Shown: piece after piece, positions 1-39,875 of the stretch
Numbering within the stretch: the stretch's first letter is position 1
Layout of the letters: every line of letters begins with the position of its first letter
Assembly: GCA_016699385.1 (NCBI GenBank)
Contig: CP064974.1
Coordinates: forward strand, 67,242-131,241
From: Candidatus Moraniibacteriota bacterium
GTDB lineage: Bacteria; Patescibacteriota; Minisyncoccia; Moranbacterales; UBA1568
DNA length: 64,000 nucleotides
Direction of reading: 5' to 3'
Translations under genes and position numbers: made by a program
The notes under the pieces: model-generated
The model's database searches: none
Seen by the model: the letters and a program-made list of their open reading frames with translations, nothing else
What the model was told of the DNA's origin: nothing

Positions 1-1545
1 AATGTTGGTATTGGTACGGCGACGCCTGTCACTGGACTCGAGCTCTATAGCTCTGCGGCGAGTGATCGAATTTTCACGATTACTTCCAACACAACAACAA
101 ATGATCCTCTTATAAAATTCCGCACGGCAGCTACCTCTCTCGCAGTGAAGTTCTCCATCGGTGTCGATACTTCCGATAGCGATACCTTCAAGATTGACTC
201 CAATGACGGTCTCAGTACCTCGCCGGACTTCAAGATTGACTCGACTGGTGTGACAACTATTGCCAATGCCCGTCTCGGTGCGCAGAGTTTACCGGAGGAT
301 GGAGGTATTCTCTCTTGGCTTGATATGTCGGTGACCAGTTCATCGGTATCGGGAACAGTGGAAAGCTATAGTGCACAGATTGATAGCAACCCGGTTCTTA
401 CGGTGTATGCGGAAAGTGATGGATCGGGTGGTATTCAGAATCAAGGAGTTGGTATTGGCACCACGACGCCAGCATATATGCTTGACGTGCTTGCTTCTGG
501 CACCGGTGTTATTGCTCGATTTAACAGCAATAATAGTACGGGCTGTACGCTTGCGACCGGAGGTACGATAAGCTGTTCCTCTGATAGTCGATTGAAGAAG
601 AATATTCATTCAACAACATTGGGACTTGAGACGCTTCTTGCTCTTCGGCCAGTGGAATACAATTGGAATTATCAATCTGATGGCGATATGAAGAGCTTCG
701 GGTTTATTGCGCAGGAAGTTGGCGCACTTATTCCTGAACTCGTGAGAACGGATGATAGCGGATATCTCCAGCTGAACACTATTGGTCTCGTCCCTATTTT
801 GGCAAAGGCTCTTCAGGAAGAGAACACCAAAGTGACGACACTCGGCGCGAATGTCAGTGCGACCTCTCTCAAAACCACCGCAAATGCAACAACGCTTGCG
901 AGTTTGCAGTCATCAGTGGACGAGCAATTGACAGTTGTATCTGAAACGGAGAATGGTTTCGAAGTTCGTCTCGCGAGCCTTGAAGAAAAGGCGATAGATA
1001 CAACAGCGCTTTCGATCAAGGTGACAGATCTCGAATCCGCTGTGTCACTCCTACAAAGTTCGAACCAAGTGCTGCTCGATTTCTACAATTCATTGTCACT
1101 CGGCAATGTCCTGGTCAAGAATGCAGATGGCAATCTCGATCTTTCAAATGGAAAGATTCGCGCGAAGGAGCTCTCGACGGGTGCGCTCGCTATCGAGATT
1201 GTGGATGAAGAGGCGCCGACAATCGGCTCAGCAACACTTTTCCCGAAAGCGGTTGACAAGAAGGGAGAAAAGGATGCTGACGGCAATGATATTGCCGATG
1301 GATTTGATGATGTGTCAGGAGATTCTATGGAAGATCCGGATGTCTTGGCACGCAATGGGAAGCAGATAATCGTCAAAACAAAAGCGGTCAGTGTTGGATC
1401 GCGCATCTTCCTTACGCCCAAGCAGGCAATTGCCGAGCCACTTGCAGTCACTGATATTTCAGAAGGGGAGGGATTCACTGTTGAAATGAAAAATGAAACC
1501 TCTGAAGAAATCCCATTTGACTGGATCGTCGTGGAAGAGAAGTAA
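1..1545 (+). CDS. Tail-fibre-like surface protein with a C-terminal intramolecular chaperone (Peptidase S74) domain, then a coiled-coil and an acidic C-terminal region. The 5' end is truncated by the window.
   Basis: Frame 1 is open from nt 1 with no stop, so the gene starts upstream. The motif SDSRLKKNI...LRPVEYNWNY...FGFIAQEV...LVPILAKALQE matches the Ser-Lys autoproteolytic chaperone domain of phage tail spikes and endosialidases. Upstream repeats such as FKIDSxDG are fibre-like. Confidence 0.6.
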   Translation, partial: NVGIGTATPVTGLELYSSAASDRIFTITSNTTTNDPLIKFRTAATSLAVKFSIGVDTSDSDTFKIDSNDGLSTSPDFKIDSTGVTTIANARLGAQSLPEDGGILSWLDMSVTSSSVSGTVESYSAQIDSNPVLTVYAESDGSGGIQNQGVGIGTTTPAYMLDVLASGTGVIARFNSNNSTGCTLATGGTISCSSDSRLKKNIHSTTLGLETLLALRPVEYNWNYQSDGDMKSFGFIAQEVGALIPELVRTDDSGYLQLNTIGLVPILAKALQEENTKVTTLGANVSATSLKTTANATTLASLQSSVDEQLTVVSETENGFEVRLASLEEKAIDTTALSIKVTDLESAVSLLQSSNQVLLDFYNSLSLGNVLVKNADGNLDLSNGKIRAKELSTGALAIEIVDEEAPTIGSATLFPKAVDKKGEKDADGNDIADGFDDVSGDSMEDPDVLARNGKQIIVKTKAVSVGSRIFLTPKQAIAEPLAVTDISEGEGFTVEMKNETSEEIPFDWIVVEEK

Positions 1546-1944: not shown

Positions 1945-2400
1945 CTACAACCCCGCCCCCTGCACCTGCCAATAGAAGTTTGAACACGTTGTATCCCGAC
2001 ACCCACACTTCCATCCACCACCTTGGATACTGCAGGTCATCCCGACAAAGTAGGCAGGGTCTATGGCACTTGCAGTCGAGATATCGGTATCGGTAATGGA
2101 AGCGGTGATACTTCCTTGGCACCATTCTCCATTGAGGGCACCGGTACAGGTGCCGGTAAACTGATGCCAGTCAGCAATACCGGGGTCATAGTAGTAGCCT
2201 TTGGTATACACGATCCTCGTCGAGTCACCGGTTTGTCCGAGAGTCGCTTGAATGGTATGGGAATCGGATGATGAGCAACTCGCATTGATGAGATTTGTGC
2301 TTGTTTGGAAGGCGTCGTATGGAGCTCCGTAACCGTTGTAGGCGGATTGGGAGAAGTTGGTAGTGGTGACAGTGTTGCAGGGGGAGAAGGTGTCGGTTCC
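1945..2400. repeat. Inverted-repeat copy A (3' end of gene 1945..4425). The distal core of about 300 bp is near-identical to 9945..10248.
   Basis: The reverse complement of 1945-2030 matches 10170-10248 almost base-for-base (ctacaaccccgccccctgcacctgccaatagaagtttgaacacg...). The encoded C-termini are identical from CTGALNGEWCQGSIT onward. Confidence 0.8.
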
Positions 2401-4425
2401 GCCTTGGGTGAGTGGCGTATTCATATCGGTTTGAATTTCCGTCTGCGTCAATGCTTTGTTGTAGATGCGGACATCGTCCACACTCCCGTTAAAAGCGCCG
2501 CTCGTGTATTCGGCATTCCCTCCGATTCTTACGGGGAAGTTGTTGGTTGAGAGGGTTTGCGTGAAACTTGCTTGCGCGTCGATGTTTCCGTCCACGTAGA
2601 GCTTCTTGGTTGTTCCGTCATACACGATAGCAACATGATGCCACGCGTCGTTTGCGACATTCGCGGTTCCTTGGAGATCATTGGCGCTTGGAGAGAAAGA
2701 GTTGAAGTCAAGCGTATTCGTTGACGCATAACGGGTGAGACTCCAGGAAGAATCTCCTTTGGAAACGAGTGCTGCCCAGGCGCTTCCGAAAGAAGCGGTT
2801 TTCATCCAGAGGGAGACGGTGAAATTGTTGGTGAAATCGAAGTCGGATTCATTGGGGATGCTTACGTAGGAATTGGCATTTCCGGAGAAAGAGATGCCAC
2901 TTCCGGTTTTGCCAGAAGACCACGTGGCATTGGAGAGCGTGCCGGTATGATTGTGTCCGGAGATATCGGAAGAGGTGGTGCCGGTTCCTTCATCGAAGTT
3001 GAGTCCGAGGAGGAGGTTTTGGGAGATGGGGGGCGGAGTGGTGACGGTGAGTACGAGAGTGGCCGTTCCGGTACCCGCCGCGTTGGTGGCGCGAATGGTG
3101 ATATTAGTCGTACCGGTTGTAGAAGGAGTGCCGGAGATAACGCCGGTATTCGTATTGACGGACGCCCATGCGGGGAGTCCGGTTGCATTGTAGGAAGTCG
3201 GTGTGTTGCTTGCCGTGATTTGGTAGGAAAAGGCGGAACCGGTGGTAGCCGAAGCGGTGAGGGGGCTCGTGATAACGGGAGTGGCGAGCGGTTGGGTCTT
3301 TGCGCTTACCACATTGGTCCAACCAGAGACATTCCCTGCCGCGTCACTCGCGCGGACACGATAGCTGTAGTCGGTATTCGGGGAGAGTCCGGTATTATTC
3401 ACAAATGGTGAGGTAGCGGGAGTACCGACCGTAGCAAACGAAGCGTCGGGACAGGCGGCGGGGAGACCGGTACAACGCTGGACCGTATAGCCGGTTACGC
3501 CGACATCGTCCGTGGCGGCGGTCCAGGTGACGGTAATAGAAGTAGAATTGGTGGCGTTCGCGGCGACACTCGTGCCAGTGGGCCATGCGGGAGGAGTGGT
3601 ATCGCTCCCTCCAGGGGTATTTGAAATAACCACATTATCATAGTAGACACTATACGGAGACCCTCCATAAAACTGGTTCCATCCTCCAAGGCAGATATAG
3701 TCAAAATAGAGGGAATTGCTATTGTCTCGGTTGGTAATACCCGTCAATCCAATAACCTTGACATTGTCGTACCAGACCTCATAAATAGCGTTTGTCTGAC
3801 TGTTGTCGTTATACTTCATATGGAGTTCCCATGTATGCCAATTACCATCCATGGCATTTATAGGACCAGGCTTGGTTCCGGTAACTGTTCCCCCACAACT
3901 GCTTGATCCCGCATAGGTTACAATTGATGCTGTGTCGCGAGTAGTTCCTGAACAGCCGTAGCTTAGTTGGTCAAATATATTGGTTTGATACGTAGTGGCT
4001 GTGGTAGTATTTGCATAGTTAGTTCCATTTCTTATGCCAAATAACTTTAAAAACTTTGTTCCACCAACACAACTTCCTGAACCACAATCAAACTTAAAGT
4101 TAAATTTAATATCTAGCTCTTGTGTATTAGCAGGCGCATCCCAATTATGCCAACGATCTCCACAGCTATTTGAATCACAGTTATAGATAATCTTTAGAGC
4201 ATTTGAACCATCCGGACCAGCTCCAACCGCAATAGAAGATGTCGACCCGGCGCTCCACCCATGATTATTGACTGAATCGGTATAATTGAAATTATCTTGA
4301 AAAAGAACGGCCGCCTGAGCGATACTCATATCTGCAAAGAGGAAAAAGCTGAACACGAAAATAAGCCCGCTCTTCTTGAAGGATGGCAAACAAAATCGAC
4401 GAGAAACAACAGGTTTTTTAATCAT
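1945..4425 (-). CDS. Large secreted multidomain surface protein: signal peptide, N-terminal Cys-rich jelly-roll domain, fibronectin-III domain, LamG (concanavalin-like) domain and a conserved Cys-rich C-terminal module.
   Basis: 826-aa ORF with N-terminal hydrophobic signal MIKKPVVSRRFCLPSFKKSGLIFVFSFFLFADMSIAQA. FN3-like block ...ITVTWTAATDDVGVTGYTVQRC...YSYRVRASDAAGN. LamG_3-like block LLLGLNFDEGTGTTSSDISGHNHTGTL...VDDVRIYNKALTQTEIQ. C-terminus ...CTGALNGEWCQGS...GGGWKCGCRDTTCSNFYWQVQGAGL is shared with two paralogs. Confidence 0.8.
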   Translation of the reverse strand: MIKKPVVSRRFCLPSFKKSGLIFVFSFFLFADMSIAQAAVLFQDNFNYTDSVNNHGWSAGSTSSIAVGAGPDGSNALKIIYNCDSNSCGDRWHNWDAPANTQELDIKFNFKFDCGSGSCVGGTKFLKLFGIRNGTNYANTTTATTYQTNIFDQLSYGCSGTTRDTASIVTYAGSSSCGGTVTGTKPGPINAMDGNWHTWELHMKYNDNSQTNAIYEVWYDNVKVIGLTGITNRDNSNSLYFDYICLGGWNQFYGGSPYSVYYDNVVISNTPGGSDTTPPAWPTGTSVAANATNSTSITVTWTAATDDVGVTGYTVQRCTGLPAACPDASFATVGTPATSPFVNNTGLSPNTDYSYRVRASDAAGNVSGWTNVVSAKTQPLATPVITSPLTASATTGSAFSYQITASNTPTSYNATGLPAWASVNTNTGVISGTPSTTGTTNITIRATNAAGTGTATLVLTVTTPPPISQNLLLGLNFDEGTGTTSSDISGHNHTGTLSNATWSSGKTGSGISFSGNANSYVSIPNESDFDFTNNFTVSLWMKTASFGSAWAALVSKGDSSWSLTRYASTNTLDFNSFSPSANDLQGTANVANDAWHHVAIVYDGTTKKLYVDGNIDAQASFTQTLSTNNFPVRIGGNAEYTSGAFNGSVDDVRIYNKALTQTEIQTDMNTPLTQGGTDTFSPCNTVTTTNFSQSAYNGYGAPYDAFQTSTNLINASCSSSDSHTIQATLGQTGDSTRIVYTKGYYYDPGIADWHQFTGTCTGALNGEWCQGSITASITDTDISTASAIDPAYFVGMTCSIQGGGWKCGCRDTTCSNFYWQVQGAGL

Positions 4426-4460: not shown

Positions 4461-5936
4461 TTATTTTCCCCTATTATACAGTTCCACTACTTCCGTCGCA
4501 GAGAGCGTCCGATTATAGAGGCGGACATCATCGATTTTTCCATAAAAACTGTATGAATCATAAGCTTCCCCCATGTTTAACGGTAAGTTATCAGTAATTG
4601 GAGTATACGCACTTGCACCACCATTATCAGTTTGTGGCACACCATTAACATACATCACTATGGTGTTTGAGCTATCTTTGTATGTTGCCACAATGTGATA
4701 CCACTCGTTTGTATTCACAATAGGCTGTGTAGTGGTAAGTTCATCGCGATAGGTTGGTCCGGTACTTGCAAATCCAAAATCCACATCGAGGTTGTCAGAT
4801 CCCGCATTGTAGAGATAGAGAAAGTAATTATTAGGTTTTCCGAAAATAAGCACGTATTGAGATGATGCTGGAAATGAATCCAAGCTCACCCACGCCGACA
4901 TAGATATTTCTCCGGTCGTTATGTCGAGACTTGTCGAATCTGCAACATCAATCCCAGTCCCATCAAAACTCAAAGCCTGTCCCAATTTCCCAATCACAGC
5001 AGAGGAGGCGGTGAGACCCACGGCATCCCCATGATTCCCTTTGCCGCTCACATCTTTGATCTCGTTACTCGTATCGCCCCAAATCACATCTGGTCCATCA
5101 AACGTCCAGTGTCCCACGAGTCCCGTATCAACCGGATCTCCCGGAACGGTGGTCTGATAGAGTCTTTTCACTGCATCTTCGGAGAGGGCTTTGCCATAGA
5201 GTCTGACATCGTCAATCTTCCCATCAAAAGGCACGCCCGCATCACTCTCGGCGCCGATACGGAAGGCATTCGCATTGGCGAGAGAATTGATGGCGGCGGT
5301 GGAGGTGGTGGTACTTCCATCGAGGCTGCCATCGAGATAGAGATACATCCCTGTGTTGTCATTCCAGACGGCGGCGAAGTGGTGCCAGCCGGTTGCGCTC
5401 AAATTGGTTGCACCGGTTGCGGAATAGGTATCGGTCCCGTCGGAAATTTCGAAATTGAGATAGTCATTGCCGGCATTGTTGTCGACCCAGACGACATAGC
5501 CCGCATTGGTGGTTTGGTCGGTTTTCTTGGCGACAATGGTGTGATCGGCGGCAAAGGTATCGCGATTGAACCAGCCGACGATAGTGAAGTCCGCGCCATC
5601 AACAAAGTCGAGAATGCCGCTTGCGGGATCAGCGATGGAGAGGTATTGTCCGCTTCCGGAGAAATCGAGAGAATAGGCGCCGATTTGCCCCGTAGTCCAA
5701 CTTGGAGAACCGGTCATGGCGAGTGTATTTCCGTTTCCACTGCTGTCAGTTGCGTTGGTGCCGGAGCCGTCATCGAGTTTCCAGTAGCCCAAGATGCCTT
5801 GGGAGAGGCGGTTTTCGATGGGGGCGTTTACGGTTTTGCTCGCTTCGGAGTTGAAGTCGTAGGTAAGTCCCACTGTTCCCGCGACAAAGAGAGCAATGAA
5901 GAACCACTGTGTTGCGCGGAGGAGGGAGATACGCAT
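4461..5936 (-). CDS. Membrane-anchored protein with two tandem LamG_3 (concanavalin A-like lectin/glucanase) domains.
   Basis: The ORF reaches 6038, but the likely start is the Met of MRISLLRATQWFFIALFVAGTVGLTY (a signal anchor) at about 5936. Two repeats match the LamG_3 signature: GYWKLDDGSGTNATDSSGNGNTL...DDVRLYGKALSEDAV and LVGHWTFDGPDV...DDVRLYNRTLSATEV. It is a paralog of 23794..25197. Confidence 0.75.
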   Translation of the reverse strand: MRISLLRATQWFFIALFVAGTVGLTYDFNSEASKTVNAPIENRLSQGILGYWKLDDGSGTNATDSSGNGNTLAMTGSPSWTTGQIGAYSLDFSGSGQYLSIADPASGILDFVDGADFTIVGWFNRDTFAADHTIVAKKTDQTTNAGYVVWVDNNAGNDYLNFEISDGTDTYSATGATNLSATGWHHFAAVWNDNTGMYLYLDGSLDGSTTTSTAAINSLANANAFRIGAESDAGVPFDGKIDDVRLYGKALSEDAVKRLYQTTVPGDPVDTGLVGHWTFDGPDVIWGDTSNEIKDVSGKGNHGDAVGLTASSAVIGKLGQALSFDGTGIDVADSTSLDITTGEISMSAWVSLDSFPASSQYVLIFGKPNNYFLYLYNAGSDNLDVDFGFASTGPTYRDELTTTQPIVNTNEWYHIVATYKDSSNTIVMYVNGVPQTDNGGASAYTPITDNLPLNMGEAYDSYSFYGKIDDVRLYNRTLSATEVVELYNRGK

Positions 5937-6055
5937 AAGCGAGGTTTTATTTGTAGACAGTATATCATGCCGGGACACAAATCTAGATGTATCACACCCT
6001 CTTTGAGACAAAAACCGTGCTATAATTCTCTCATCCATTCCTCATTCTTCCCTCC

Positions 6056-7396
6056 ATGCCTGCGCGCTTCTTCACCTGGATCATTATCCTCTTCTCCCTC
6101 ACCGTGGGAGCGGTTCTTTGGTGGCGACTTCAGGGGAAAAATCAAGGTCAAGCCGCAGAAACGATGAATGCGACGGTTCCAGGACCAACATCCTCCATTC
6201 TTGTCGGGCACTGGACACTTGATGGGAACGATGTTGTCTGGGGCGATACGACCAGTGAAATCAAAGACGTCTCGGGGTATGCGAAACACGGCGACTCTTC
6301 AAATCTCACAGCAGGAAGCGCAGTGGTAGGGCGAATTGGTCAGGGACTCCTTTTTAATGGAAGTAGCGACTCCATCTCTCTCGGCAATGTCTACAACGGC
6401 GTGAAAACCGTTTCCTTCTGGGCAAAGCCAAACTCAACAACACAGCCCTTTATTGATTTGAATGGCACAGCGACAATCAATATGACGTCCAGCACGGTAG
6501 CGGCGAATAACTTTACCAGTCCGACAATCTATGTGGATGGAACGGCAACCAGCACCTTTCCCAACACCAACTGGCATCATATCACTGTGACGACTGGAAC
6601 TAGCATTAATGCGAGCGCAGCATATTTGGGAAAAATCGCGAGCAGCTATTTCGGTGGTATATTAGATGACCTACGATTCTACTCAACTGAACTCTCTGCG
6701 ACGCAGGTTGCCGATCTCTACAGAAGTAGCGGCGCGAAGCAAACCATCAACTTCGGCATGGAAGGCACCTTGACCGATGGGCTCGTCGGGCACTGGACGA
6801 TGGACGGAAATGACGTCATCTGGGGCGATTCGAGTAGTGAGGTGAAGGATCGAAGCGGGAACGGCAACGACGGGGATGCCGTGGGTCTCACTGCTTCCTC
6901 CGCCGTGATTGGCAAATTGGGGCAGGGGTTGAGTTTTGATGGGACGAGTGATGAGATTAGTGTCCTCGGTCCGACCATTACCAATACCCATTCTTTCGTC
7001 GCATGGATTAAGCCGTCTGGAAATCTCGGAGGGTACAATTCGTTAGTGGAAAGTGACACTACCTTTATAGGCGTTTACCTTCAGGATAGTAGCAGTTCTC
7101 AATGTTCCTTTGTTCAAACTCTTAATTTCTACTATTCAAGTACAAGTCATTGCAGTAACACAGAAATTACGGATGATATCTGGACGCATGTCGCAGTGAT
7201 AAATAATGCAGGATCTGTCACTTTTTACGTAAATGGTGCCCCTGCCGGAACGGCGACAAGTGCTCCGGGTTACACTGCCGGAATGATCGGGAATGGGAAC
7301 TCCACCTCTTTTAAGGGTTCTCTCGACGATGTCCGCATGTATAACCGGGCACTTTCTGTAACCGAAGTGACTAATTTGTATACCATAGGGAAATAG
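6056..7396 (+). CDS. Membrane-anchored protein with two tandem LamG_3 domains.
   Basis: N-terminal TM segment MPARFFTWIIILFSLTVGAVLWW. Two repeats start LVGHWT(L/M)DGNDV(V/I)WGD and end DD(L/V)R(F/M)Y...LS.T(Q/E)V. It is divergently transcribed from 4461..5936. Confidence 0.75.
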   Translation: MPARFFTWIIILFSLTVGAVLWWRLQGKNQGQAAETMNATVPGPTSSILVGHWTLDGNDVVWGDTTSEIKDVSGYAKHGDSSNLTAGSAVVGRIGQGLLFNGSSDSISLGNVYNGVKTVSFWAKPNSTTQPFIDLNGTATINMTSSTVAANNFTSPTIYVDGTATSTFPNTNWHHITVTTGTSINASAAYLGKIASSYFGGILDDLRFYSTELSATQVADLYRSSGAKQTINFGMEGTLTDGLVGHWTMDGNDVIWGDSSSEVKDRSGNGNDGDAVGLTASSAVIGKLGQGLSFDGTSDEISVLGPTITNTHSFVAWIKPSGNLGGYNSLVESDTTFIGVYLQDSSSSQCSFVQTLNFYYSSTSHCSNTEITDDIWTHVAVINNAGSVTFYVNGAPAGTATSAPGYTAGMIGNGNSTSFKGSLDDVRMYNRALSVTEVTNLYTIGK

Positions 7397-7464: not shown

Positions 7465-10248
7465 ATGAAACAAAATTTGCTTGCATTCACGCTCTCTTCG
7501 ATTGGACTATTTTTCTTCCTTCTTCCTGCGCATGTTTATGCCGCTCAGACAACAGGTGGCGTCAACTGGCTTGATCCACTTGGGTATCAAAAGCCGGCAT
7601 TTTATCCGATCACGGTACCGGATGAAGCTACCGTGACAAACAAATATTATGTTGATATGAGTTCGGGCTCTGGAAGTGCGTGCTCTTCTTCAAGTCCCTG
7701 TGCCAATATTGACAATGTAATTGGAAAACCAGGTACAACTGGCGGGCCGGCCTATGTGTACGTTCGTGGCACGGGCAATCTTTCGCTCTATAATGATTCC
7801 TTCTACGGATCCGCAGGGAATGAAATCGTTATCAAGCCGTGGGGTACAGCGACCGCAACTTTTACTAGCAATTCAAACACCAATAGCTCCAATGTGCATC
7901 ACCTCATATTTGATGGTGGCTCGAATTTGGGAATTCGATTTCAATCCTCCGCTGGACAGTACTCCTTGCATGTTCTCTCGAATGATACGACGATTTATCG
8001 GACACAAAGTTTGTGTTCAGGATCTGGTGCGCTCTTGTTTTCTGTTGGCGATAGCAAGGTAAACTCAAATGTTGCATTTATCAATAATGAAGGTTATGGC
8101 TGTACATCTACTAATGATCAGGTAAGTTTTGTGTATGCTGGCCCGGGGGGTGGAGGCGGTTACTCAAACTTGAAAATACTCAATAATATTATTCGTGATA
8201 TGGGTGGTGAGGGTATTGAAATCAATCCTCGTGTTACTTCGAATAACCTCGAAATTACAGGAAACGCGATTCATAATATTGGGAAAGTTACTTGCTCTAC
8301 GGCATGGAACTGCCGTCCCGGTATTACTATGAGCGTACAGAGTGGTGGTGGTAACAATGGAACGGTTATTAAAAACAACCTCATCTGGGACACAGGTTCT
8401 GGTTGCGTGTGGGATAGGGGTGGAGGTACTCCCCGACCACTTATCGTGAACAATACATGCTACGATTATGCTAAGATTGGTAGTGACCCTTGGCCGAATG
8501 GCATTGCTGGGTATTCCGGCCCTGGAACAGCAACTGTATCGAACAATATCATTTACGCTCCAAACGGAACGAATCCACTGGATGGTACCTATGCGGGGAC
8601 CAACAACCTTTGTGGCTCCGGCAAATCCTGTGGCTCCTCCAGTCAAGCATGGAGTGCTAGCACGTTTCTCTCAACGAACGAAAACACATCGAACTTTCTT
8701 CAGATAGGTATAAATTCTACAGCCAAAGATACTGGCATAACCATAGCGAGTGTCACAAATGATTATGCCGATAATACTCGCCCTGTTGGCTCTGGCTGGG
8801 ATATCGGCGCTTACGAATACGGTACCTCCACTCCCGACACCACCTCCCCCACCTCTCCCACCACTCTCGCCGCAAACGCCACCAGTGCCTCGAGTATCAC
8901 CGTCACGTGGAATCCAGCAACCGACCCCACTACCGAGGGGCAGGCAACATCGGGCATCACTGGATACCTCATCGAACGCTGTACCGGACTCTCGTGTTCC
9001 ACCTTCACCCAAGTGGGAACTCCCACTTCCAACAGCTACTCCGACACCGGTCTCACTGCCACAACTCTCTACCGCTATCGCGTACGAGCAAACGATGGAG
9101 CCGGCAACAATTCTTCCTACTCAAACATTGTTTCCGCCACCACCCCCCAAGCCCCTCCTTCTCCCACCTTCGTCTCCGAATACGAAACTCCCTGGAATAC
9201 GAGTACCTCTCCCAAGACAACGAGTACTTTCAATGTTCAGTCAGGCGACATCCTCGTCGCCTATGCCGTGAATGAAAACTCCGGAAGTGTCATCACGACT
9301 CCTCCCACAGGAACCCTCTCCGGTACCTGGACACTCAAGCAAACGATTGCCGCCAGTAACGCCACCTACCTCCGTCTCTGGACGATGAGTGTCGCAACAA
9401 GCCAAACCAATGTGAATGTTGTCTTCACGAACGCGGGAGGCAACTTTGGAGGAGACGTCCTCCACTTCCGAAACGCGAGTAGTGTCGGTGTGACCGCCCA
9501 AGCCAACAGTGCGACCGGAAACCCAACCCTCACACTAAACGGCGTCAGTGAAAACTCATCCATCATCATGGTAAACGGAGACTGGAGTGCGAAGACTGGA
9601 GCAAGAACCTACAATACCACCCAAGCTGGATCCTTCACAGAAACCTCTGCCTATGCCGACGGATCAAGCTATGGAGTCGAAGCGGGCTACTACGAAAATG
9701 CCGGAACAGCAGGAAACAAAACAATTGGAATCTCTGCCCCAACCGGTATGTCTTGGTCACTCGCCGCAGTAGAAGTGAAAGGGAGTGGAACACCATCAAG
9801 TTCCTTCTCCTCCTGCTCCACTATCACTCCCGCCACCTTCCCAGGGAGTACCTACACCGGCTATGGTGCTCCCTATGATGTCTTTGCGAGTAATACTCCT
9901 CTCATAGCAACAGAGTGTAGCAGTGGTGATACCCATACCCTCAAAGCAACACTCGGCATTACGGGAGACACTACTCGAATCGTCTATACCAAAGGCTACT
10001 ACTATGACCCCGGTATTGCTGACTGGCATCAGTTTACCGGTACCTGTACCGGTGCTCTCAACGGAGAATGGTGCCAAGGAAGTATCACGACTTCCATCAC
10101 CGATACCGATATCTCAACCGCGAGTGCCACAGACCCTGCCTACCTTGTGGGGATGACCTGCTCGGTGCAGGGTGGCGGGTGGAAGTGTGGGTGTCGGGAT
10201 ACGGCGTGTTCAAACTTCTATTGGCAGGTGCAGGGGGCGGGGTTGTAG
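7465..10248 (+). CDS. Giant secreted surface protein: signal peptide, right-handed parallel beta-helix (pectate-lyase/NosD-like) region, DIGAYEY linker, FN3 domain, beta-sandwich region and the conserved Cys-rich C-terminal module.
   Basis: Signal peptide MKQNLLAFTLSSIGLFFFLLPAHVYAAQ. Beta-helix repeats NNIIRDMGGEGIEINPRV...ITGNAIHNIG...IKNNLIWDTGSG...SNNIIYAP. RPVGSGWDIGAYEY linker. FN3 block ITVTWNPATDP...YRYRVRANDGAGN. The C-terminal 100 aa are identical or near-identical to gene 1945..4425. Confidence 0.8.
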   Translation: MKQNLLAFTLSSIGLFFFLLPAHVYAAQTTGGVNWLDPLGYQKPAFYPITVPDEATVTNKYYVDMSSGSGSACSSSSPCANIDNVIGKPGTTGGPAYVYVRGTGNLSLYNDSFYGSAGNEIVIKPWGTATATFTSNSNTNSSNVHHLIFDGGSNLGIRFQSSAGQYSLHVLSNDTTIYRTQSLCSGSGALLFSVGDSKVNSNVAFINNEGYGCTSTNDQVSFVYAGPGGGGGYSNLKILNNIIRDMGGEGIEINPRVTSNNLEITGNAIHNIGKVTCSTAWNCRPGITMSVQSGGGNNGTVIKNNLIWDTGSGCVWDRGGGTPRPLIVNNTCYDYAKIGSDPWPNGIAGYSGPGTATVSNNIIYAPNGTNPLDGTYAGTNNLCGSGKSCGSSSQAWSASTFLSTNENTSNFLQIGINSTAKDTGITIASVTNDYADNTRPVGSGWDIGAYEYGTSTPDTTSPTSPTTLAANATSASSITVTWNPATDPTTEGQATSGITGYLIERCTGLSCSTFTQVGTPTSNSYSDTGLTATTLYRYRVRANDGAGNNSSYSNIVSATTPQAPPSPTFVSEYETPWNTSTSPKTTSTFNVQSGDILVAYAVNENSGSVITTPPTGTLSGTWTLKQTIAASNATYLRLWTMSVATSQTNVNVVFTNAGGNFGGDVLHFRNASSVGVTAQANSATGNPTLTLNGVSENSSIIMVNGDWSAKTGARTYNTTQAGSFTETSAYADGSSYGVEAGYYENAGTAGNKTIGISAPTGMSWSLAAVEVKGSGTPSSSFSSCSTITPATFPGSTYTGYGAPYDVFASNTPLIATECSSGDTHTLKATLGITGDTTRIVYTKGYYYDPGIADWHQFTGTCTGALNGEWCQGSITTSITDTDISTASATDPAYLVGMTCSVQGGGWKCGCRDTACSNFYWQVQGAGL
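9795..10248. repeat. Inverted-repeat copy B (3' end of gene 7465..10248).
   Basis: See copy A. A third, more diverged copy (about 70% protein identity) ends gene 25238..28267 at 27815..28267. Confidence 0.8.
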
Positions 10249-23681: not shown

Positions 23682-23793
23682 ATACCGAGAATCTCTTGTG
23701 AGATCAAGAAATTTTCTTGGATGATGGGTATTGAATTGTTCCAGTGCAATTCATTACCACCTGGATCCGTTACACGTACTAGCCACCCCCTTT

Positions 23794-25197
23794 ATGAAAC
23801 TCTCCCTCACACATTTCCTCCAGTGGGGCGGCATCGCTGCCGTGCTGCTTGTTGTCGTCGGACTCAACTACGATTTCGAATCCAAAGCCGGCATGCAGCT
23901 CAATGGTTCTGTCGAGAGCTCGCTCTCCCAAGGGATGCGCGGCTACTGGAAACTCGATGACGGCTCCGGCACCAATGCGACCGACAGTAGTGGAAATGCA
24001 AACACTCTCGCCATGACTGGCTCTCCCACCTGGAGTGCCGGACAAATCGGTCCATACATGCTCGACTTCTCCGGAAGCGGACAATACCTCTCCGTCGCCG
24101 ATCCCGCAAGCGGTGTCCTCGACTTTGCCAATGGAGCCGACTTCTCTCTCACGGGCTGGTTCAATCGAGACACTTTCACCGCCGACCACACCATCGTCGC
24201 CAAGAAAACCGACCAAGCTACCAATGCCGGCTATGTCGTCTGGATAGATGCCTCTACCGATACGGTCAACTTCGAAATTTCTGATGGTACCTATACCTAC
24301 GAAGCAGACTCTACCACAACATTCACATCAACCGGTTGGCATCACTTCACTGCCGTCTGGGATGATAGTCGTGGTGCCTCTGTCTATATTGATGGAGGAC
24401 TCAATGGAAGCACAGAAACCTCTACCAGTAGTATAGGAGACCTCTCGAATGCCAATGCCTTCCGTATCGGAGCCGAATCCGACGCCGGAGTTCCTTTTGA
24501 TGGCAAGCTCGATGATATCCGCGTCTATGGCTACGCTCTCTCTGCTGACGAAGTAAAGAAGCTCTACAATACCACGAGCCCCGCCCAACCCGTCGACACC
24601 TCCTTGGTCGGGCACTGGACGTTTGATGGTCCGGATATTCAGGGGAGTACCGCAATAGACAGGAGTAGCTTCGGGAACAATGGGACGATAACGGGAGCGG
24701 TACCGGTGAAGGGGAAATTGGGCCAGGGGATGGGGTTTGATGGGACGGGGGATTATGTTGAAACAAATTCAACCATTCCTGCTTCTGGAGCATTCTCCAT
24801 AAGTGCGTGGATCAATATGAAACAAATAAACGATCTCCCCTCAATTGTTAATACGAGCAACTCGATTTTTTATTATAGTTCTTATGTCAGTCGTCTTTAC
24901 TGGACGAACAATAACTACTCTACAAGAGTAGGAGGATCTTCCGCTTTAAATATCAATCAGTGGTATTTTGTGGTGGTTGTAAATAACAGTGATGACACGG
25001 CAACATTATACATAAACGGTACACAAGACGGGACAGCCAATCAAGCCGCGGGCTCAAGACTAGCAGGAGGAGAAATTTGTATAGGTGCTCGTTCTGATGG
25101 CCTGAAGCCTTTTAATGGGATCATTGACGATGTTCGCTTCTACAACCGCGCCCTCTCCGCAAGCGAAATCACCAACTTCTACAACATGGGGCGGTAA
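23794..25197 (+). CDS. Membrane-anchored protein with two tandem LamG_3 domains; paralog of 4461..5936.
   Basis: The likely start is the Met of MKLSLTHFLQWGGIAAVLLVVVGLNY (signal anchor); the ORF reaches back to 23731. Motifs GYWKLDDGSGTNATDSSGNANTL and LVGHWTFDGPDI. It is about 70% identical to the 4461..5936 product. Confidence 0.75.
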   Translation: MKLSLTHFLQWGGIAAVLLVVVGLNYDFESKAGMQLNGSVESSLSQGMRGYWKLDDGSGTNATDSSGNANTLAMTGSPTWSAGQIGPYMLDFSGSGQYLSVADPASGVLDFANGADFSLTGWFNRDTFTADHTIVAKKTDQATNAGYVVWIDASTDTVNFEISDGTYTYEADSTTTFTSTGWHHFTAVWDDSRGASVYIDGGLNGSTETSTSSIGDLSNANAFRIGAESDAGVPFDGKLDDIRVYGYALSADEVKKLYNTTSPAQPVDTSLVGHWTFDGPDIQGSTAIDRSSFGNNGTITGAVPVKGKLGQGMGFDGTGDYVETNSTIPASGAFSISAWINMKQINDLPSIVNTSNSIFYYSSYVSRLYWTNNNYSTRVGGSSALNINQWYFVVVVNNSDDTATLYINGTQDGTANQAAGSRLAGGEICIGARSDGLKPFNGIIDDVRFYNRALSASEITNFYNMGR

Positions 25198-25237: not shown

Positions 25238-28200
25238 ATGCAGTACGTCATTCATAGTTTGGTTGGGAGTAGGATTGGTTCGTTCTGTTTTTTGGTAGCG
25301 GTTTTTGTTTTCGGCGCGGCGGTTGTTTTTCCAGGAAAGGCGGAAGCAGCGACGTACTATGTGTCGAAAACAGGTGCAGATAGCAATCCCGGCACATCGC
25401 AGCAGCCGTGGCTGACTATAACCAAAGCGGCAAATACCATGGTCAGCGGTGATACAGCGCTGGTGGCTGCTGGGACATATAACGAGACCGTGCGAACGGT
25501 ACGCCACGGAAGCGTAGGAAATAGAATCACATTTCGAGCAAATGGGATTGCCAAAGGAAGCAAATTCTTTATTGATCATAATTATGTAACTGTAGAAGGG
25601 TTCAGTTTATCGGGATTTGGCGCGGTTGAGTCAATCGGTGACTATTGCGAAATCTCCAGTAACACATTTACGAACGGTGGGATTTTTTTTCCTCCGAATA
25701 GAGACCAAAAAGCGGACTATTGCGTTATCCGTGGCAATACCATTACCGTACCAACGCCGCAGGGAGCGGATTTCCCCACGATCATGATCTATGGCGATAA
25801 TAATCTTATAGAGAATAACGAGATTGGACCCGGCTATGATGTTGACTCATTCCGTCCGTTCGGATCAAACAATATCATAAGAAACAACTATATCCATGAC
25901 ATTTCTTACTCGCCGGGAAGTGCGGCGCACATAGACGTACTTCAATTCTACGGCATCAACGGTGATACCGTATATAATTTGCTATTTGAGAAAAACAGAG
26001 TCGCTAATTCTCAAGGACAAATGTGGATGACGGAGGTCCAAGGTGCAACCACCCTGAGTGACGTAATTATCCGCAACAATTTATTTTATAATGTTTCACA
26101 AAACGCTTATATAGGCGTCCCTAATTTTGAGGTATATAACAATACCTTTGTGAATACAGGGGTTATTTCGGTGCAAAAGGATTCGTACAAGATGAATGGC
26201 ATAAATGCCAAAATAAAGAACAATATCTTCATTACAAGTAAAGATGCTAATGCATCTTATGTTTATAACTTCATTGTTGCAAGCGGGGGGCCTAACCCGC
26301 AGGCAGATTACAACTGCGTAGCCTCCAATAGCTACAATACGATTACGTCTTTTTCAGAAGCAAACGGAATCAATGGGTGCAACCCTTTATTTGTTGATCG
26401 CTCCACTGGTGACTTCCGTCTCTCGACTGGCAGTCCAGCAATTGATTCGGGGGCGAGTCTTACCGTTAACGACGATATTACTGGGTTAACGCGTCCAGTA
26501 GGGGCTGGGTGGGACATCGGCGCCTACGAATACACTTCCGGCACCCCCCTCGACCCCGACACCACTTCTCCCACTTCTCCCACCGGCCTCGCCGCAAACG
26601 CCACGAGCCAATCGAGCATCACCGTCTCCTGGACCGCCTCGACCGATCCGATAGTCGCGGGACAGACCACCTCAGGTATTTCCAATTACATCGTCGAGCG
26701 CTGCCAAGGCTCCGGTTGTTCCACCTTCACCCAAGTCGGCACTCCGACCACCTCTCCCTTCGTCGACTCCGGCCTCACGCCAAACACCTTTTACAACTAT
26801 CACGTCCGCGCGACCGATGCCGCCGGGAATCTCTCCGGCTGGTCCAATGTGGTCGGTGCGACGACCCAAGCTCCTGATACGCAAGCGCCCACAGCTCCGA
26901 GCAATCTCCAAACCTCCGTCGTCTCATCCTCCAACATCAACCTCGCCTGGACGGCAAGCACAGACAATGTCGCCGTCACCAATTACACCGTCGAACGCTG
27001 CTCCGGAACTTCCTGCACCACCTTCACCCAAATCGCCACTCCAACGACCAACTCCTACTCCGACGCCGGTCTTACGGGAACGACGACCTACCGTTACCGA
27101 GTCCTCGCAACCGATGCCGCCAACAACACTTCCCCCTACTCGAATATTTCTTCCGCCACGACCCCCGTTGCGCCTCCCGTCTCCCAGTATCTCCAGGCGG
27201 GCTACAACTTTGCCGAAGGCACCGGCACCACCACCCAAGACATCTCCGGTCACAACCACACCGGTACTCTCTCCAATACCACCTGGTCGACGAGCGGCAA
27301 ATACGGAAACGCTCTCGACTTTAACGGAACGAGCAGCTCTGTCGGTATTGGAAACTGGAACATTCCCGGAAGCGCCATCACCCTAAGCGCCTGGGTACGG
27401 GCGGACGACTGGAAGACGGACGATGTCCGCATCCTCTCCAAAGCAACCGACAGTACCGAACAGGGTCATACCTGGATGCTCTCCGATTCCAATAGTCTCC
27501 TCCGCTTCCGCCTCAAAACCGGTGGCACAACCACAACCCTCGTTGCAACGAGCGGCACTCTCCAAACAAATGTCTGGACTCATGTCGCCGCGGTCTATGA
27601 CGGAAGCACGATGACACTCTACAAAGACGGACTCGAAGTCGGAAGCCAAGCCAAAACCGGCACCATCGATCAAAACACCGCCAACATTTCAATCGGAGCA
27701 AATCCCGAAGGCTCCAACTCCTTTGACGGTACGATAGACGATGTCCGCATCTACAACAAGGCGCTCACGCAATCAGAAATCCAAACCGATATGAATACCC
27801 CGCTCACCCAAGGAGGAAGCGGAACCCAAGTTTGCAACACCGTGACGACCGCGAACTTCTCCGATGCCGCTTACAACAGTTACGGCGCGCCTTTCGATGC
27901 GTTTCAAACGAGTACGAATCTGATGAATGCACTGTGCACCAGCGCCGACACGCATACCATCACGTTCACGACCGGAGTAACGGGAGACACCGCGAGAATC
28001 GTCTACACCAAAGGCTACTGGTACGATGCAATAGGAAGCGCCTGGCGACAATACACCGGCACCTGCACGGGAGCGCTCAATGGCGAGTGGTGCCAAGGCT
28101 CCGTCTCCGCGACGATCACGGATGCCAATGTCTCCACTTCCGGGACGGGCTCACCCACCTACCTGGTCGGGATGACCTGCAGTGTGCAGGGAGGTGGGTG

Positions 28201-28267
28201 GAAGTGCGGGTGTCGGGATACGGCGTGTGCGAGTTTCAACTGGCAGGTGCAAGGGGGAGGGATGTAG
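25238..28267 (+). CDS. Giant secreted surface protein: signal peptide, right-handed beta-helix, DIGAYEY linker, two FN3 domains, a LamG domain and the conserved Cys-rich C-terminal module.
   Basis: The likely start is MQYVIHSLVGSRIGSFCFLVAVFVFGAAVVFPGKAEA; the ORF reaches back to 25115 and overlaps the upstream gene. ATYYVSKTGADSNPGT...GDTALVAAGTYNETV is a typical beta-helix N-terminus. RPVGAGWDIGAYEY linker. Tandem FN3 domains. LamG block YLQAGYNFAEGTGTTTQDISGHNHTGTL...DDVRIYNKALTQSEIQ. C-terminus ...CTGALNGEWCQGS...GGGWKCGCRDTACASFNWQVQGGGM. Confidence 0.8.
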   Translation: MQYVIHSLVGSRIGSFCFLVAVFVFGAAVVFPGKAEAATYYVSKTGADSNPGTSQQPWLTITKAANTMVSGDTALVAAGTYNETVRTVRHGSVGNRITFRANGIAKGSKFFIDHNYVTVEGFSLSGFGAVESIGDYCEISSNTFTNGGIFFPPNRDQKADYCVIRGNTITVPTPQGADFPTIMIYGDNNLIENNEIGPGYDVDSFRPFGSNNIIRNNYIHDISYSPGSAAHIDVLQFYGINGDTVYNLLFEKNRVANSQGQMWMTEVQGATTLSDVIIRNNLFYNVSQNAYIGVPNFEVYNNTFVNTGVISVQKDSYKMNGINAKIKNNIFITSKDANASYVYNFIVASGGPNPQADYNCVASNSYNTITSFSEANGINGCNPLFVDRSTGDFRLSTGSPAIDSGASLTVNDDITGLTRPVGAGWDIGAYEYTSGTPLDPDTTSPTSPTGLAANATSQSSITVSWTASTDPIVAGQTTSGISNYIVERCQGSGCSTFTQVGTPTTSPFVDSGLTPNTFYNYHVRATDAAGNLSGWSNVVGATTQAPDTQAPTAPSNLQTSVVSSSNINLAWTASTDNVAVTNYTVERCSGTSCTTFTQIATPTTNSYSDAGLTGTTTYRYRVLATDAANNTSPYSNISSATTPVAPPVSQYLQAGYNFAEGTGTTTQDISGHNHTGTLSNTTWSTSGKYGNALDFNGTSSSVGIGNWNIPGSAITLSAWVRADDWKTDDVRILSKATDSTEQGHTWMLSDSNSLLRFRLKTGGTTTTLVATSGTLQTNVWTHVAAVYDGSTMTLYKDGLEVGSQAKTGTIDQNTANISIGANPEGSNSFDGTIDDVRIYNKALTQSEIQTDMNTPLTQGGSGTQVCNTVTTANFSDAAYNSYGAPFDAFQTSTNLMNALCTSADTHTITFTTGVTGDTARIVYTKGYWYDAIGSAWRQYTGTCTGALNGEWCQGSVSATITDANVSTSGTGSPTYLVGMTCSVQGGGWKCGCRDTACASFNWQVQGGGM

Positions 28268-28356
28268 ACGTGTGGAAGTGTGCACGCCCGTATCGTTCCT
28301 TCGCAAGGCGGGGTTGCGGGCAGGGGAAGGAGAGTGTATTCATATTGTTGAACTTT

Positions 28357-29535
28357 ATGAAAAATGAGATGTTGGAAACGTATATAGTGAGTCAAGTCCG
28401 AAGTGGGGTGAGAAAAGCCGATATTCAGGAAATGTTGCTCGCGGTCGGGTGGTCGGAAGAGGATGTGGACGCGGCGTATGCGCGAGCGCTTATTGCGGCG
28501 GGCGTGCCAGTTCCGGAGGGAATAGGGAAGGCGCTCGCAGCGAAGAAGGCTTCGACGGTTGACATTATGATTGGTTTCTTCTCATTCATTTTGCTGGGCA
28601 TTATCGTGTCAGCGCTCGGCTCGCTCTTTTTTGAAATAATCAATCGGTACTTCCCAGATACTGTTGTAAATGCTGGACTTGGATCAGTTGTCTCGTCGGA
28701 TGCGGTGCACTACTCGATGGCAGCGCTTTTTGTCGGGACTCCTTTGTACTTCTTCGCGATTCGTTTGTGGTTTCGTCGGTTTCGCGAAGATGATGCTCGC
28801 GCAGAATCTCGCCTGACTAAGTGGGTGACCTATCTCGTCCTTTTAATTGCTGCTGTCACGATTGTTGGTGACTTCATTGCGATTCTCTACACGTTTCTTC
28901 AGGGGGAAATCAGTGTGCGATTTTTCCTCAAGGCGATCGTGATTTTTGGAATTTCTGGAATGGTGTTTGGCTTTTATTTTCTGGAGAGGAAGAAGATTCA
29001 GTACAAGCACGATATTTCTCGGCAGGTATTCCAATCGTTTGGATGGGGACTTCTCGGCGCTGTTGTACTTGGAATCATACTGGGATTTCTGGCAGTTGGC
29101 TCTCCAGCTCTGGAGAGGAATCGAACATTTGATGCGCGTCGCGCGAGTGATTTGGAGAGGCTCGCGGGGTGTATACGTGGCTATGCGCAAGACTTTTCTC
29201 GTTTGCCGAAGGCACTTTCGGATTTGAAGCAGTCGAGCCAATATGGATATTGTTTGTCATTGGGAGATCCTGAGACGGGAGAGCCCTATGAGTATCGTGC
29301 TGTGAAAGGTTTCGCTTTGTTGCAAGATGGGAGTGAGGCACAGTTTGAATTGTGCGCGGTCTTCTCCTTGGAATCGAAGGGAGATGAGGCAATGACTCGT
29401 CAGGTGTCGTACGATGTTCCGATGGGCGCCTCTGGAGGCAAATGGGCTATGCACACATCTGGGAGGAACTGTACATCTGAGACAGTTATCTTGAATCGAA
29501 GTGCTCAGCCTTCTCCAATGAAGCCTTCGTATTGA
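28357..29535 (+). CDS. Polytopic membrane protein with an N-terminal soluble domain and a C-terminal pilin/pseudopilin-like segment.
   Basis: In-frame ATG (MKNEMLETYIV) just after the upstream stop. About 6 hydrophobic helices. After the last helix, ERNRTFDARRASDLERLAGCIRGYAQDFSRLPKALSDL resembles the conserved DARRxSDL..I..AL..Y region that follows the N-terminal helix of type IV pilins in CPR and Gram-positive bacteria. Confidence 0.55.
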   Translation: MKNEMLETYIVSQVRSGVRKADIQEMLLAVGWSEEDVDAAYARALIAAGVPVPEGIGKALAAKKASTVDIMIGFFSFILLGIIVSALGSLFFEIINRYFPDTVVNAGLGSVVSSDAVHYSMAALFVGTPLYFFAIRLWFRRFREDDARAESRLTKWVTYLVLLIAAVTIVGDFIAILYTFLQGEISVRFFLKAIVIFGISGMVFGFYFLERKKIQYKHDISRQVFQSFGWGLLGAVVLGIILGFLAVGSPALERNRTFDARRASDLERLAGCIRGYAQDFSRLPKALSDLKQSSQYGYCLSLGDPETGEPYEYRAVKGFALLQDGSEAQFELCAVFSLESKGDEAMTRQVSYDVPMGASGGKWAMHTSGRNCTSETVILNRSAQPSPMKPSY

Positions 29536-39221: not shown

Positions 39222-39875
39222 ATGAACGATATCGAACCGTCTCGCTCCAAAAATACCGATTCGTATCAAGAGACATTTGATGACGAAGAAGTCTATGGCG
39301 TTGGGCGATTTCTGTGGGAAATCGTGAAAATCGTTATTCTTGCGCTGATTATCATTATACCTGTCCGCGCCTTCTTCTTCCAGCCGTTTTTTGTACAGGG
39401 ATCAAGCATGGAACCGAATTTCCATGATGGAGAATATCTCGTTGTTGGTGAGTTTGGTTACAAAGAGACGAGTGTCGGATTTGGCGGGACAAATTTGTTG
39501 AATGTGATGCCGTTTAAGGAATTGCATCGCGGCGATGCCGTGGTCTTTCGTCCGCCAGGTATCACCGGACAGTTTTTTATTAAGCGAGTCGTCGGACTGC
39601 CGGGCGAGACGATAGAGATTAACAATTCTCACATCATTATCAAAAATGCGCAGGCTCCGGGAGGATTCGTTCTCAATGAGCGAACATACCTTCTGCCATC
39701 CGTAGAGACGACAGGGGATAGGGTATTGACGCTTGGTGACAATGAATACTTCCTTTTGGGCGACAATCGTACAGCAAGCAAGGACTCTCGTGCCTTCGGC
39801 CCTGTTTCAAAAGATCGTATTACCGGCAAAGTGATGTTGCGTGCGTGGCCGTTTAGTCGTCTCACTTTTTTCTAA
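39222..39875 (+). CDS. lepB: Signal peptidase I.
   Basis: S26 boxes are present: GSSMEPNF (catalytic Ser), GDAVVFRPP, IKRVVGLPGETIE (catalytic Lys) and LGDNRTASKDSRAFGPV. Confidence 0.85.
   Translation: MNDIEPSRSKNTDSYQETFDDEEVYGVGRFLWEIVKIVILALIIIIPVRAFFFQPFFVQGSSMEPNFHDGEYLVVGEFGYKETSVGFGGTNLLNVMPFKELHRGDAVVFRPPGITGQFFIKRVVGLPGETIEINNSHIIIKNAQAPGGFVLNERTYLLPSVETTGDRVLTLGDNEYFLLGDNRTASKDSRAFGPVSKDRITGKVMLRAWPFSRLTFF

Follow-up and report, generated by a model that had tools for sequence, protein, structure and literature searches.

A cysteine-rich C-terminal module of three large predicted surface proteins from a Moraniibacteriota bacterium belongs to an unannotated domain family and may serve in envelope attachment

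A stretch of 64,000 nucleotides from Candidatus Moraniibacteriota bacterium (assembly GCA_016699385.1, contig CP064974.1, positions 67,242 to 131,241), hereafter called the window, was analysed with respect to a cysteine-rich module that ends three large predicted surface proteins. The genes encoding these proteins are called A, B and C, and all coordinates are collected in Table 1. The module is a genuine and hitherto unannotated domain family, which is large, multi-copy, concentrated in the Candidate Phyla Radiation (CPR; also called Patescibacteria) and confidently modelled. By function it is closest to wall-binding modules of the SLH, LysM and SH3b type and to carbohydrate-binding modules (CBMs); by sequence or specific fold it belongs to none of these. 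Tentatively, and with somewhat less than even confidence, we read it as a module for non-covalent attachment to the cell envelope.

Domains without an assigned function are commonly met as new ones in CPR bacteria, most of which are uncultivated, and both the retention of surface proteins and the attachment to hosts are poorly understood in these organisms. The module gives a handle on CPR surface display or host binding.

Three copies of the module in the window

A preliminary description of this DNA had placed a common C-terminal module on genes A, B and C, and translation of the open reading frames (ORFs) together with tblastn bears this out. When each module was searched by tblastn against all six frames of the window, exactly three copies were found (E 1e-61 to 1e-80), and there is no further copy in the window, all other scores having E>0.6. 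Pairwise identity in these searches is 80-81% between copies A and B, 69% between A and C and 62-63% between B and C. The module is 146 amino acids long, and all three translations end in ..WKCGCRDT.C..F.WQVQG.G[LM] followed by the stop codon. A shorter pattern from this end, WKCGC.D..C....WQ.Q, has three occurrences in the window versus 0 expected in shuffles.

Eight cysteines, at module positions 3, 37, 80, 89, 118, 127, 129 and 134, are common to the three copies, the same number as counted earlier. In the alignment, the cysteine columns covered by all nine close sequences are invariant. The consensus string and the coordinates first given for the module were essentially right: the end at 10248, which is the stop codon of gene B, is exact, and the start at 9795 lies approximately 13 nt upstream of the onset of conservation (9808-9814).

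All three module-bearing proteins start with a hydrophobic signal peptide and an AxA-type site. Their N-terminal architectures differ as originally described, according to scans with Pfam and NCBIfam. The polysaccharide-lyase-like jelly roll of gene A is a match below the Pfam cut-off and the sole enzyme-like match among the cargoes in the window. For gene C the ATG at 25238 is a more plausible start than the one at 25115, since the latter makes the gene overlap the preceding one and the former opens straight onto the signal peptide.

Searches against known families

The isolated module and the full proteins were searched against Pfam-A (2025), NCBIfam r20 and PHROGs, and nothing was found over the module region. 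The NCBIfam library scanned is the NCBI naming set of curated family models, and this set includes curated models of C-terminal sorting domains. Against the sequences of PDB chains, both phmmer and a profile of 34 sequences gave noise alone (E 0.12-0.42). The view that this is not a described domain is thereby upheld for Pfam, NCBIfam, PHROGs and PDB sequences.

The names of relatives were uninformative, as the word-index search returned few and close ones, and the cluster records read 'hypothetical protein' or were blank. A PF21164 (Dumpy DPY) tag on one relative was rejected; it lies outside the module and below threshold. In the relevant literature searched, the motif WKCGC is absent, and keywords yield just general remarks on large Cys-rich surface proteins of CPR bacteria. 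Two DNA patterns and a profile-guided scan gave no true match in viral contigs, and for this reason the idea of a phage receptor-binding protein was dropped.

The domain family

An exhaustive HMMER profile search of 1.84 billion cluster representatives gave 762 proteins at E<=1e-3, of which 212 reach E<=1e-10 and 35 reach E<=1e-30. The similarity could have been confined to this genome and then have meant a recent duplicate only; the profile and motif searches find the module widely elsewhere. Six close relatives from the word-index search, having 61-83% identity over the aligned stretch, all end in ..WQIQGAG[MLQ].

Re-scoring of 154 retrieved sequences separates two tiers. Members of the close subfamily (E<1e-50) are proteins of 470-1170 amino acids whose last 146-160 residues are always the module, and every complete one ends in ..WQ[VI]QGAG[LMQ]. 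The distant tier (28-40% identity) is far larger, and here the domain often covers residues ~20-170, right after the signal peptide. Of the 154 sequences, 64 have the domain at the C-terminus, 54 at the N-terminus and 8 in an internal position; in the other 28 it stands alone, a class that includes some fragments. Real stand-alone forms, consisting of a signal peptide and the domain only, are P0054, P0056, P0127, P0142 and P0150, of which P0142 lies on a 125-kb contig. That the module always sits at the extreme C-terminus is therefore right for the close subfamily and wrong for the wider family, where it is also found N-terminally, internally and alone.

One member of the close subfamily (JBPOHW010000005.1, 728-4039, minus strand) reads past the usual stop (..WQVQGAGQ) into an extension of 57 amino acids. 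This is the sole exception found to the strict C-terminal end.

In a domain alignment of 143 sequences, C37, C118, C127, C129 and C134 are conserved in 93-100% and C3 in 86%. W73, W88, W125, W139, Q140, Q142, G50, Y60 and Y64 are conserved as well, and so is the N-terminal loop P.GYGAPY[DN]VF. Because the cysteines, tryptophans, glutamines and the loop are retained across these 143 sequences, the homology of the distant tier is, as judged from sequence, secure.

Predicted structure and the C-terminal end

An AlphaFold2 model of copy B built with nine close sequences was mediocre, with a predicted local distance difference test score (pLDDT) of 72. Using alignment A2, having 34 sequences from both tiers, the pLDDT was 92.6 with a predicted template modelling score of 0.86 and no residue below 70. 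This model is all-beta, with approximately 11 strands, an irregular N-terminal part of 30 residues and one short helix, and the final strand (140-144) stops two residues short of the C-terminus. As modelled, the fold is an Ig-like beta-sandwich, and presumably a disulfide-bonded one.

The number of cysteines per domain is almost always 6 or 8, and such even counts would fit an oxidised extracellular protein. C80 and C89 occur together in 68 sequences and are jointly missing from 73, one exception aside, and from this pattern they probably form a pair, an accessory staple that would be constant in the C-terminal subfamily. One subgroup lacks C129 together with C134. C118 and C127 stand opposite each other across the 117-121/124-127 hairpin of the model. 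The putative disulfide map is C3-C37, C80-C89, C118-C127 and C129-C134, i.e. three core bonds and one accessory bond; it is based on co-occurrence and strand register, with C3-C37 as the remaining pair.

A constant C-terminal module could be a secretion or sorting signal, read and possibly cleaved by dedicated machinery, of the kind known from the C-terminal domain (CTD) of type IX secretion system (T9SS) substrates or from sortase and exosortase substrates. The preliminary description had named T9SS substrates as a comparable example. The T9SS CTD (Por_Secre_tail/TIGR04183) is likewise an Ig-like sandwich; it ends large secreted proteins of diverse kinds, with many paralogs per genome, and the module takes this extreme C-terminal place in all complete members of the close subfamily. 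However, neither the module nor the three full proteins match a CTD profile at E<=1 in Pfam or NCBIfam, and no other sorting model of these libraries matches. The module is approximately 50% larger than the T9SS CTD and has predicted disulfide bonds, many of its homologs are N-terminal or stand alone, and its hosts are not Bacteroidota. Within the 64 kb of the genome that the window covers, none of the T9SS machinery (PorU, PorV, SprA etc.) was found among the 30 ORFs scanned.

Further evidence against a sorting signal comes from the two ends of the proteins. A Sec-type hydrophobic segment is found at the N-terminus of 97 of the 133 family members tested and of all three window proteins. At the other end no member has a hydrophobic tail or an LPXTG motif: among family members of at least 150 amino acids there is no hydrophobic 15-mer within the last 40 residues, no frame of the window has an LPXTG-like tail, and the C-terminus is taken up by a structural strand. 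In addition, the genes of the window point to a monoderm, which has no outer membrane to cross. The sorting-signal explanation is very improbable on these grounds and we regard it as largely refuted. The variable position and the diverse partners argue instead that the module behaves as an autonomous module, presumably a binding one.

Partner domains of the module

Pfam scans of the cargo were made for 106 distant and 29 close members. Most of the cargo is unannotated. The annotated part falls into carbohydrate-active domains (PL14, Polysacc_lyase, pectate lyase, RGL11, GH5, GH16, GH26 and polysaccharide deacetylase), peptidoglycan hydrolases (M23, CHAP and SpoIID), lectin or CBM domains (LamG, malectin, CBM6, CBM35, CBM60 and Golvesin_C), and a group with beta-helices, CARDB, CAP and FN3/Ig stalks. 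Some module-bearing proteins have a CBM6, CBM35, CBM60 or malectin domain of their own. In the close subfamily the order is signal peptide, variable head, FN3 stalk, optional LamG and module, and FN3 was found in 17 of the 29 close members scanned.

The NCBIfam model choice_anch_Q matches in genes B and C with 27.6 and 43.7 bits, respectively (cut-off 25). These segments close the two beta-helices, around a ..RPVGSGWDIGAYEY motif. We take the choice-of-anchor names of NCBIfam to denote domains that are seen with alternative C-terminal anchors.

The window also encodes three LamG (Laminin_G_3) proteins without the module, which end right after LamG. These paralogs have N-terminal transmembrane (TM) segments resembling signal anchors, versus the AxA signal peptides of the module-bearing genes (three proteins against three, by eye).

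With two of the three cargoes being beta-helices, and a protein with a Peptidase_S74 domain encoded nearby (145..1545), the module might be thought an intramolecular chaperone that folds or trimerises its cargo, in the way of Peptidase_S74 of phage tailspikes. But the module has no S74 similarity, a beta-helix is missing from gene A and from many members of the family, and the domain also occurs N-terminally and alone. Of the explanations considered here we give this one the least credence.

The S74 protein has PHROG tail-fibre C-terminal matches with E down to 6e-17 and approximately 260 residues beyond the S74 domain, which is unusual for a chromosomal gene beside genes for surface proteins.

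Homogenisation within genomes

Genes A and B share 87.5% identity over their last 321 nt. In bins of 45 nt, the identity is 80-98% in the last 270 nt, whereas the module's first 180 nt show 40-67%. Judged from the alignment, this tract looks like a recent gene conversion between paralogs. The two arms form an inverted repeat of approximately 320 bp bracketing approximately 8 kb, with a breakpoint in the module near residue 60, and such a repeat could mediate inversion of the ~8-kb segment.

Modules of high identity within one genome are seen elsewhere too. In the metagenome-assembled genome (MAG) CAYQPQ01, all three modules are 97-99% identical. In CP064994.1 this holds for three of the six full-length modules compared, whose loci are dispersed and whose heads differ. 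In CAYQPQ01 the positional ortholog of gene C (CAYQPQ010000009.1, 2-2575) shares the downstream DUF5671, S6 and SSB genes and a related beta-helix, and its module is 82% identical to copy B and 60% to copy C. The module thus behaves as an exchangeable cassette homogenised among paralogs, which indicates either concerted evolution or cassette swapping.

A constant module on variable cargo, being multi-copy and homogenised, is also what would be expected of co-evolution with one protein partner. The module could then be a docking or oligomerisation domain, either for a constant scaffold (S-layer, pilus or a cohesin-like receptor) or for multimerisation, and its Ig-like sandwich fold would suit this. 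We consider such a role unlikely.

Taxonomic distribution and gene content of the window

A degenerate DNA pattern for WKCGC.D..C....WQ.Q was searched in a set with one genome per GTDB species and matched 85 loci in 44 assemblies; the pattern is strict, so that copies per genome are lower bounds. Approximately 30 of the 44 assemblies are labelled as CPR, namely Saccharibacteria, Moraniibacteriota, Peribacteria/Peregrinibacteria, Gracilibacteria, Paceibacterota/Parcubacteria, and Falkow-, Ryan-, Portnoy- and Giovannonibacteria. Labels outside the CPR are Bdellovibrionales/Pseudobdellovibrionaceae (six), Alphaproteobacteria (eight, mostly Rhodospirillales) and Gammaproteobacteria (two). The complete 1.05-Mb Moraniibacteriota genome CP064994.1 has at least 9 ORF matches, one Saccharibacteria MAG has at least 9 copies, and two other MAGs have at least 6 each.

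In syntenic stretches the window has approximately 82% DNA identity to the MAG CAYQPQ01, which is labelled 'uncultured Bdellovibrionales'. The nearest relatives (CAYQPQ01, CAZJZN01, CAZIIR01 and CALMES01) have 75-84% DNA identity or modules that are 95-99% identical. Their labels are mutually inconsistent, being Bdellovibrionales, Saccharibacteria (L070, CAZIIR01) and Peregrinibacteria (L075, CALMES01), and they conflict with a window whose gene content is CPR-like.

Genes found in the window include those for DUF5671, LytR-CpsA-Psr, ComEC, a PilB-type ATPase and signal peptidase I; almost all housekeeping genes share one strand, and the 30 window ORFs scanned include none for an outer membrane. 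This gene content suggests a CPR-like, monoderm organism. In monoderms the LytR-CpsA-Psr ligase joins wall glycopolymers to peptidoglycan, and as the window encodes one, wall glycopolymers are probably present in this organism. The LytR-CpsA-Psr gene is among the few minus-strand genes in the plus-strand housekeeping block, and adjoins the gene for signal peptidase I.

Function of the module

In the case of envelope attachment, the protein would be exported by Sec and its N-terminal signal peptide removed. The module would then bind some constant envelope polymer, for which a peptidoglycan-associated glycan in the wall of the producer itself is the most likely candidate. The variable head (a beta-helix or lyase-like enzyme, or a LamG lectin) and the FN3 stalk would stay displayed on the cell. 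That the module binds, that its ligand is a glycan, and that this ligand is on the own envelope, are three steps which we infer.

Anchoring is favoured because the module is the constant and homogenised part on cargo of unrelated specificity, and because some of this cargo already has a CBM of its own. The layout of head, stalk and module also mirrors that of C-terminally anchored surface proteins of monoderms. Furthermore, the module-bearing proteins have signal peptides that look cleavable where the LamG paralogs without the module have TM segments, two of the cargoes carry a choice-of-anchor domain, and the LytR-CpsA-Psr ligase suggests wall glycopolymers. As a speculation, the conservation of the loop motif across distant lineages might reflect a chemically conserved ligand, which would suit peptidoglycan or a common wall glycan.

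Several points weigh against envelope attachment. The module is acidic, with an isoelectric point (pI) of 4.3-4.6 (subfamily median 4.9), and has few charged residues, whereas the classical modules that bind the wall by gripping anionic polymers are basic. Genuine stand-alone forms exist, and an anchor without cargo is hard to explain. Some MAGs that have the family bear the labels Alpha- or Gammaproteobacteria, both of them diderm groups. In the comparison of signal peptides with TM anchors three proteins stand on each side, as judged by eye, and the concerted evolution could equally reflect frequent recombination of the cassette.

The same composition, which is CBM-like (42% Ser, Thr, Gly and Asn at the pI given above), fits a target-binding domain, i.e. 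a new CBM or an adhesin tip for a glycan of a host, a prey or a substrate. The genuine stand-alone forms, the linkage to carbohydrate-active enzymes and the MAGs labelled as diderms are in line with this too. We hold such a role, the main rival of envelope attachment, to be possible, if doubtful. Surface anchoring and a shared binding tip, both of which had been put forward in the preliminary description, remain as readings, and of the two we favour anchoring.

Among known systems, the SLH, LysM, SH3b, CWB2 and GW modules resemble the present one in being constant modules on varied secreted cargo, including peptidoglycan hydrolases and glycosidases. They also occur at either end or alone and in many copies per genome, and need no covalent sorting motif. 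Unlike SLH, LysM, SH3b, CWB2 and PG_binding, the module has no Pfam or NCBIfam match. SLH is built of helices, LysM is beta-alpha-alpha-beta and SH3b has an SH3 fold, whereas the module is a single, presumably disulfide-bonded beta-sandwich of ~146 amino acids. Wall-binding modules also come in tandem repeats, whereas this one is usually present in a single copy.

CBMs in the CAZy sense are similar in being discrete beta-sandwiches on carbohydrate-active enzymes, which in the wider family are PL14, GH5, GH16, GH26, pectate lyase and deacetylase. CBM56 (PDB 5t7a, 6a6c) and CBM6/35 are among the closest known systems, but the module is no member of an existing CBM family by sequence or structure.

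Large extracellular proteins that are Cys-rich (~7% Cys), carry signal peptides, vary between strains and have a possible role in attachment have been described for Peribacteria, and weakly resemble Cys-rich repeats of Myxococcus (PMC4736985). The CPR lineage, the large extracellular proteins and the proposed attachment are shared with the present case; the Peribacteria proteins are Cys-rich throughout and have no discrete terminal domain defined, unlike the module (PMC4736985).

If the ligand is the own wall, the module would be a new class of anchoring module, and if it is a host glycan, a new family of CBMs or adhesins that is specific to episymbionts. More broadly, though we would not call it likely, the domain could be the signature of an unrecognised, Patescibacteria-centred system for non-covalent display, a new wall-anchor class holding the host-facing enzymes and lectins of CPR episymbionts. 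In that event a list of the module proteins in a CPR genome would be a list of its displayed host-interaction proteins, and the homogenisation would reflect co-evolution of the module with the wall polymer of the lineage itself.

The module is small enough to be expressed for binding tests. The profile (alignment A2 and the 143-sequence alignment) can be used for annotating many hypothetical secreted proteins and for picking out the displayed or secreted enzyme repertoire.

Coordinates and further observations

Table 1. Coordinates, in the window, of the module copies, the genes carrying them and neighbouring features.
Feature	Coordinates	Strand	Description
Gene A	1945..4425	-	826 aa; signal peptide (..SIAQA/AV), lyase-like jelly roll, FN3, He_PIG, LamG (517-665), module
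Gene B	7465..10248	+	927 aa; signal peptide (..HVYA/AQ), beta-helix and choice-of-anchor-Q (416-452), FN3 (464-557), ~190 aa unannotated, module
Gene C	25238..28267	+	1009 aa (longest ORF from 25115, 1050 aa); signal peptide (..KAEA/AT), DUF1565 beta-helix, choice-of-anchor-Q, 2 FN3, LamG, module
Module copy A	1948..2385	-	residues 681-826 of gene A; motif 1960-2013
Module copy B	9808..10245	+	residues 782-927 of gene B; motif WKCGCRDTACSNFYWQVQ at 10180-10233
Module copy C	27827..28264	+	last 146 aa of gene C; motif 28199-28252
A/B repeat arm in gene A	1945..2265	-	3' 321 nt
A/B repeat arm in gene B	9928..10248	+	3' 321 nt
choice_anch_Q, gene B	8710-8820		27.6 bits
choice_anch_Q, gene C	26405-26533		43.7 bits
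Region between FN3 and module, gene B	~9230-9800		gene B residues ~590-780
S74 protein	145-1545	+	Peptidase_S74 (endosialidase intramolecular chaperone) at residues 146-201
LamG protein without module	4461-6038	-	Laminin_G_3
LamG protein without module	6056-7396	+	Laminin_G_3
LamG protein without module	23731-25197	+	Laminin_G_3
DUF5671 membrane protein	27832-29535	+	longest ORF
LytR-CpsA-Psr protein	37346-39070	-	
Signal peptidase I	39222-39875		

Approximately 430 nt at the end of gene C are also covered by the longest ORF of the DUF5671 membrane protein, whose true start is probably downstream of 28267.

The stretch of approximately 190 amino acids between FN3 and the module in gene B recurs directly upstream of the module in the relatives P0001 and P0004, and is probably a second undescribed domain. 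A similar-looking stretch is found in L070 at the matching position, a likeness seen by eye in unaligned sequences.

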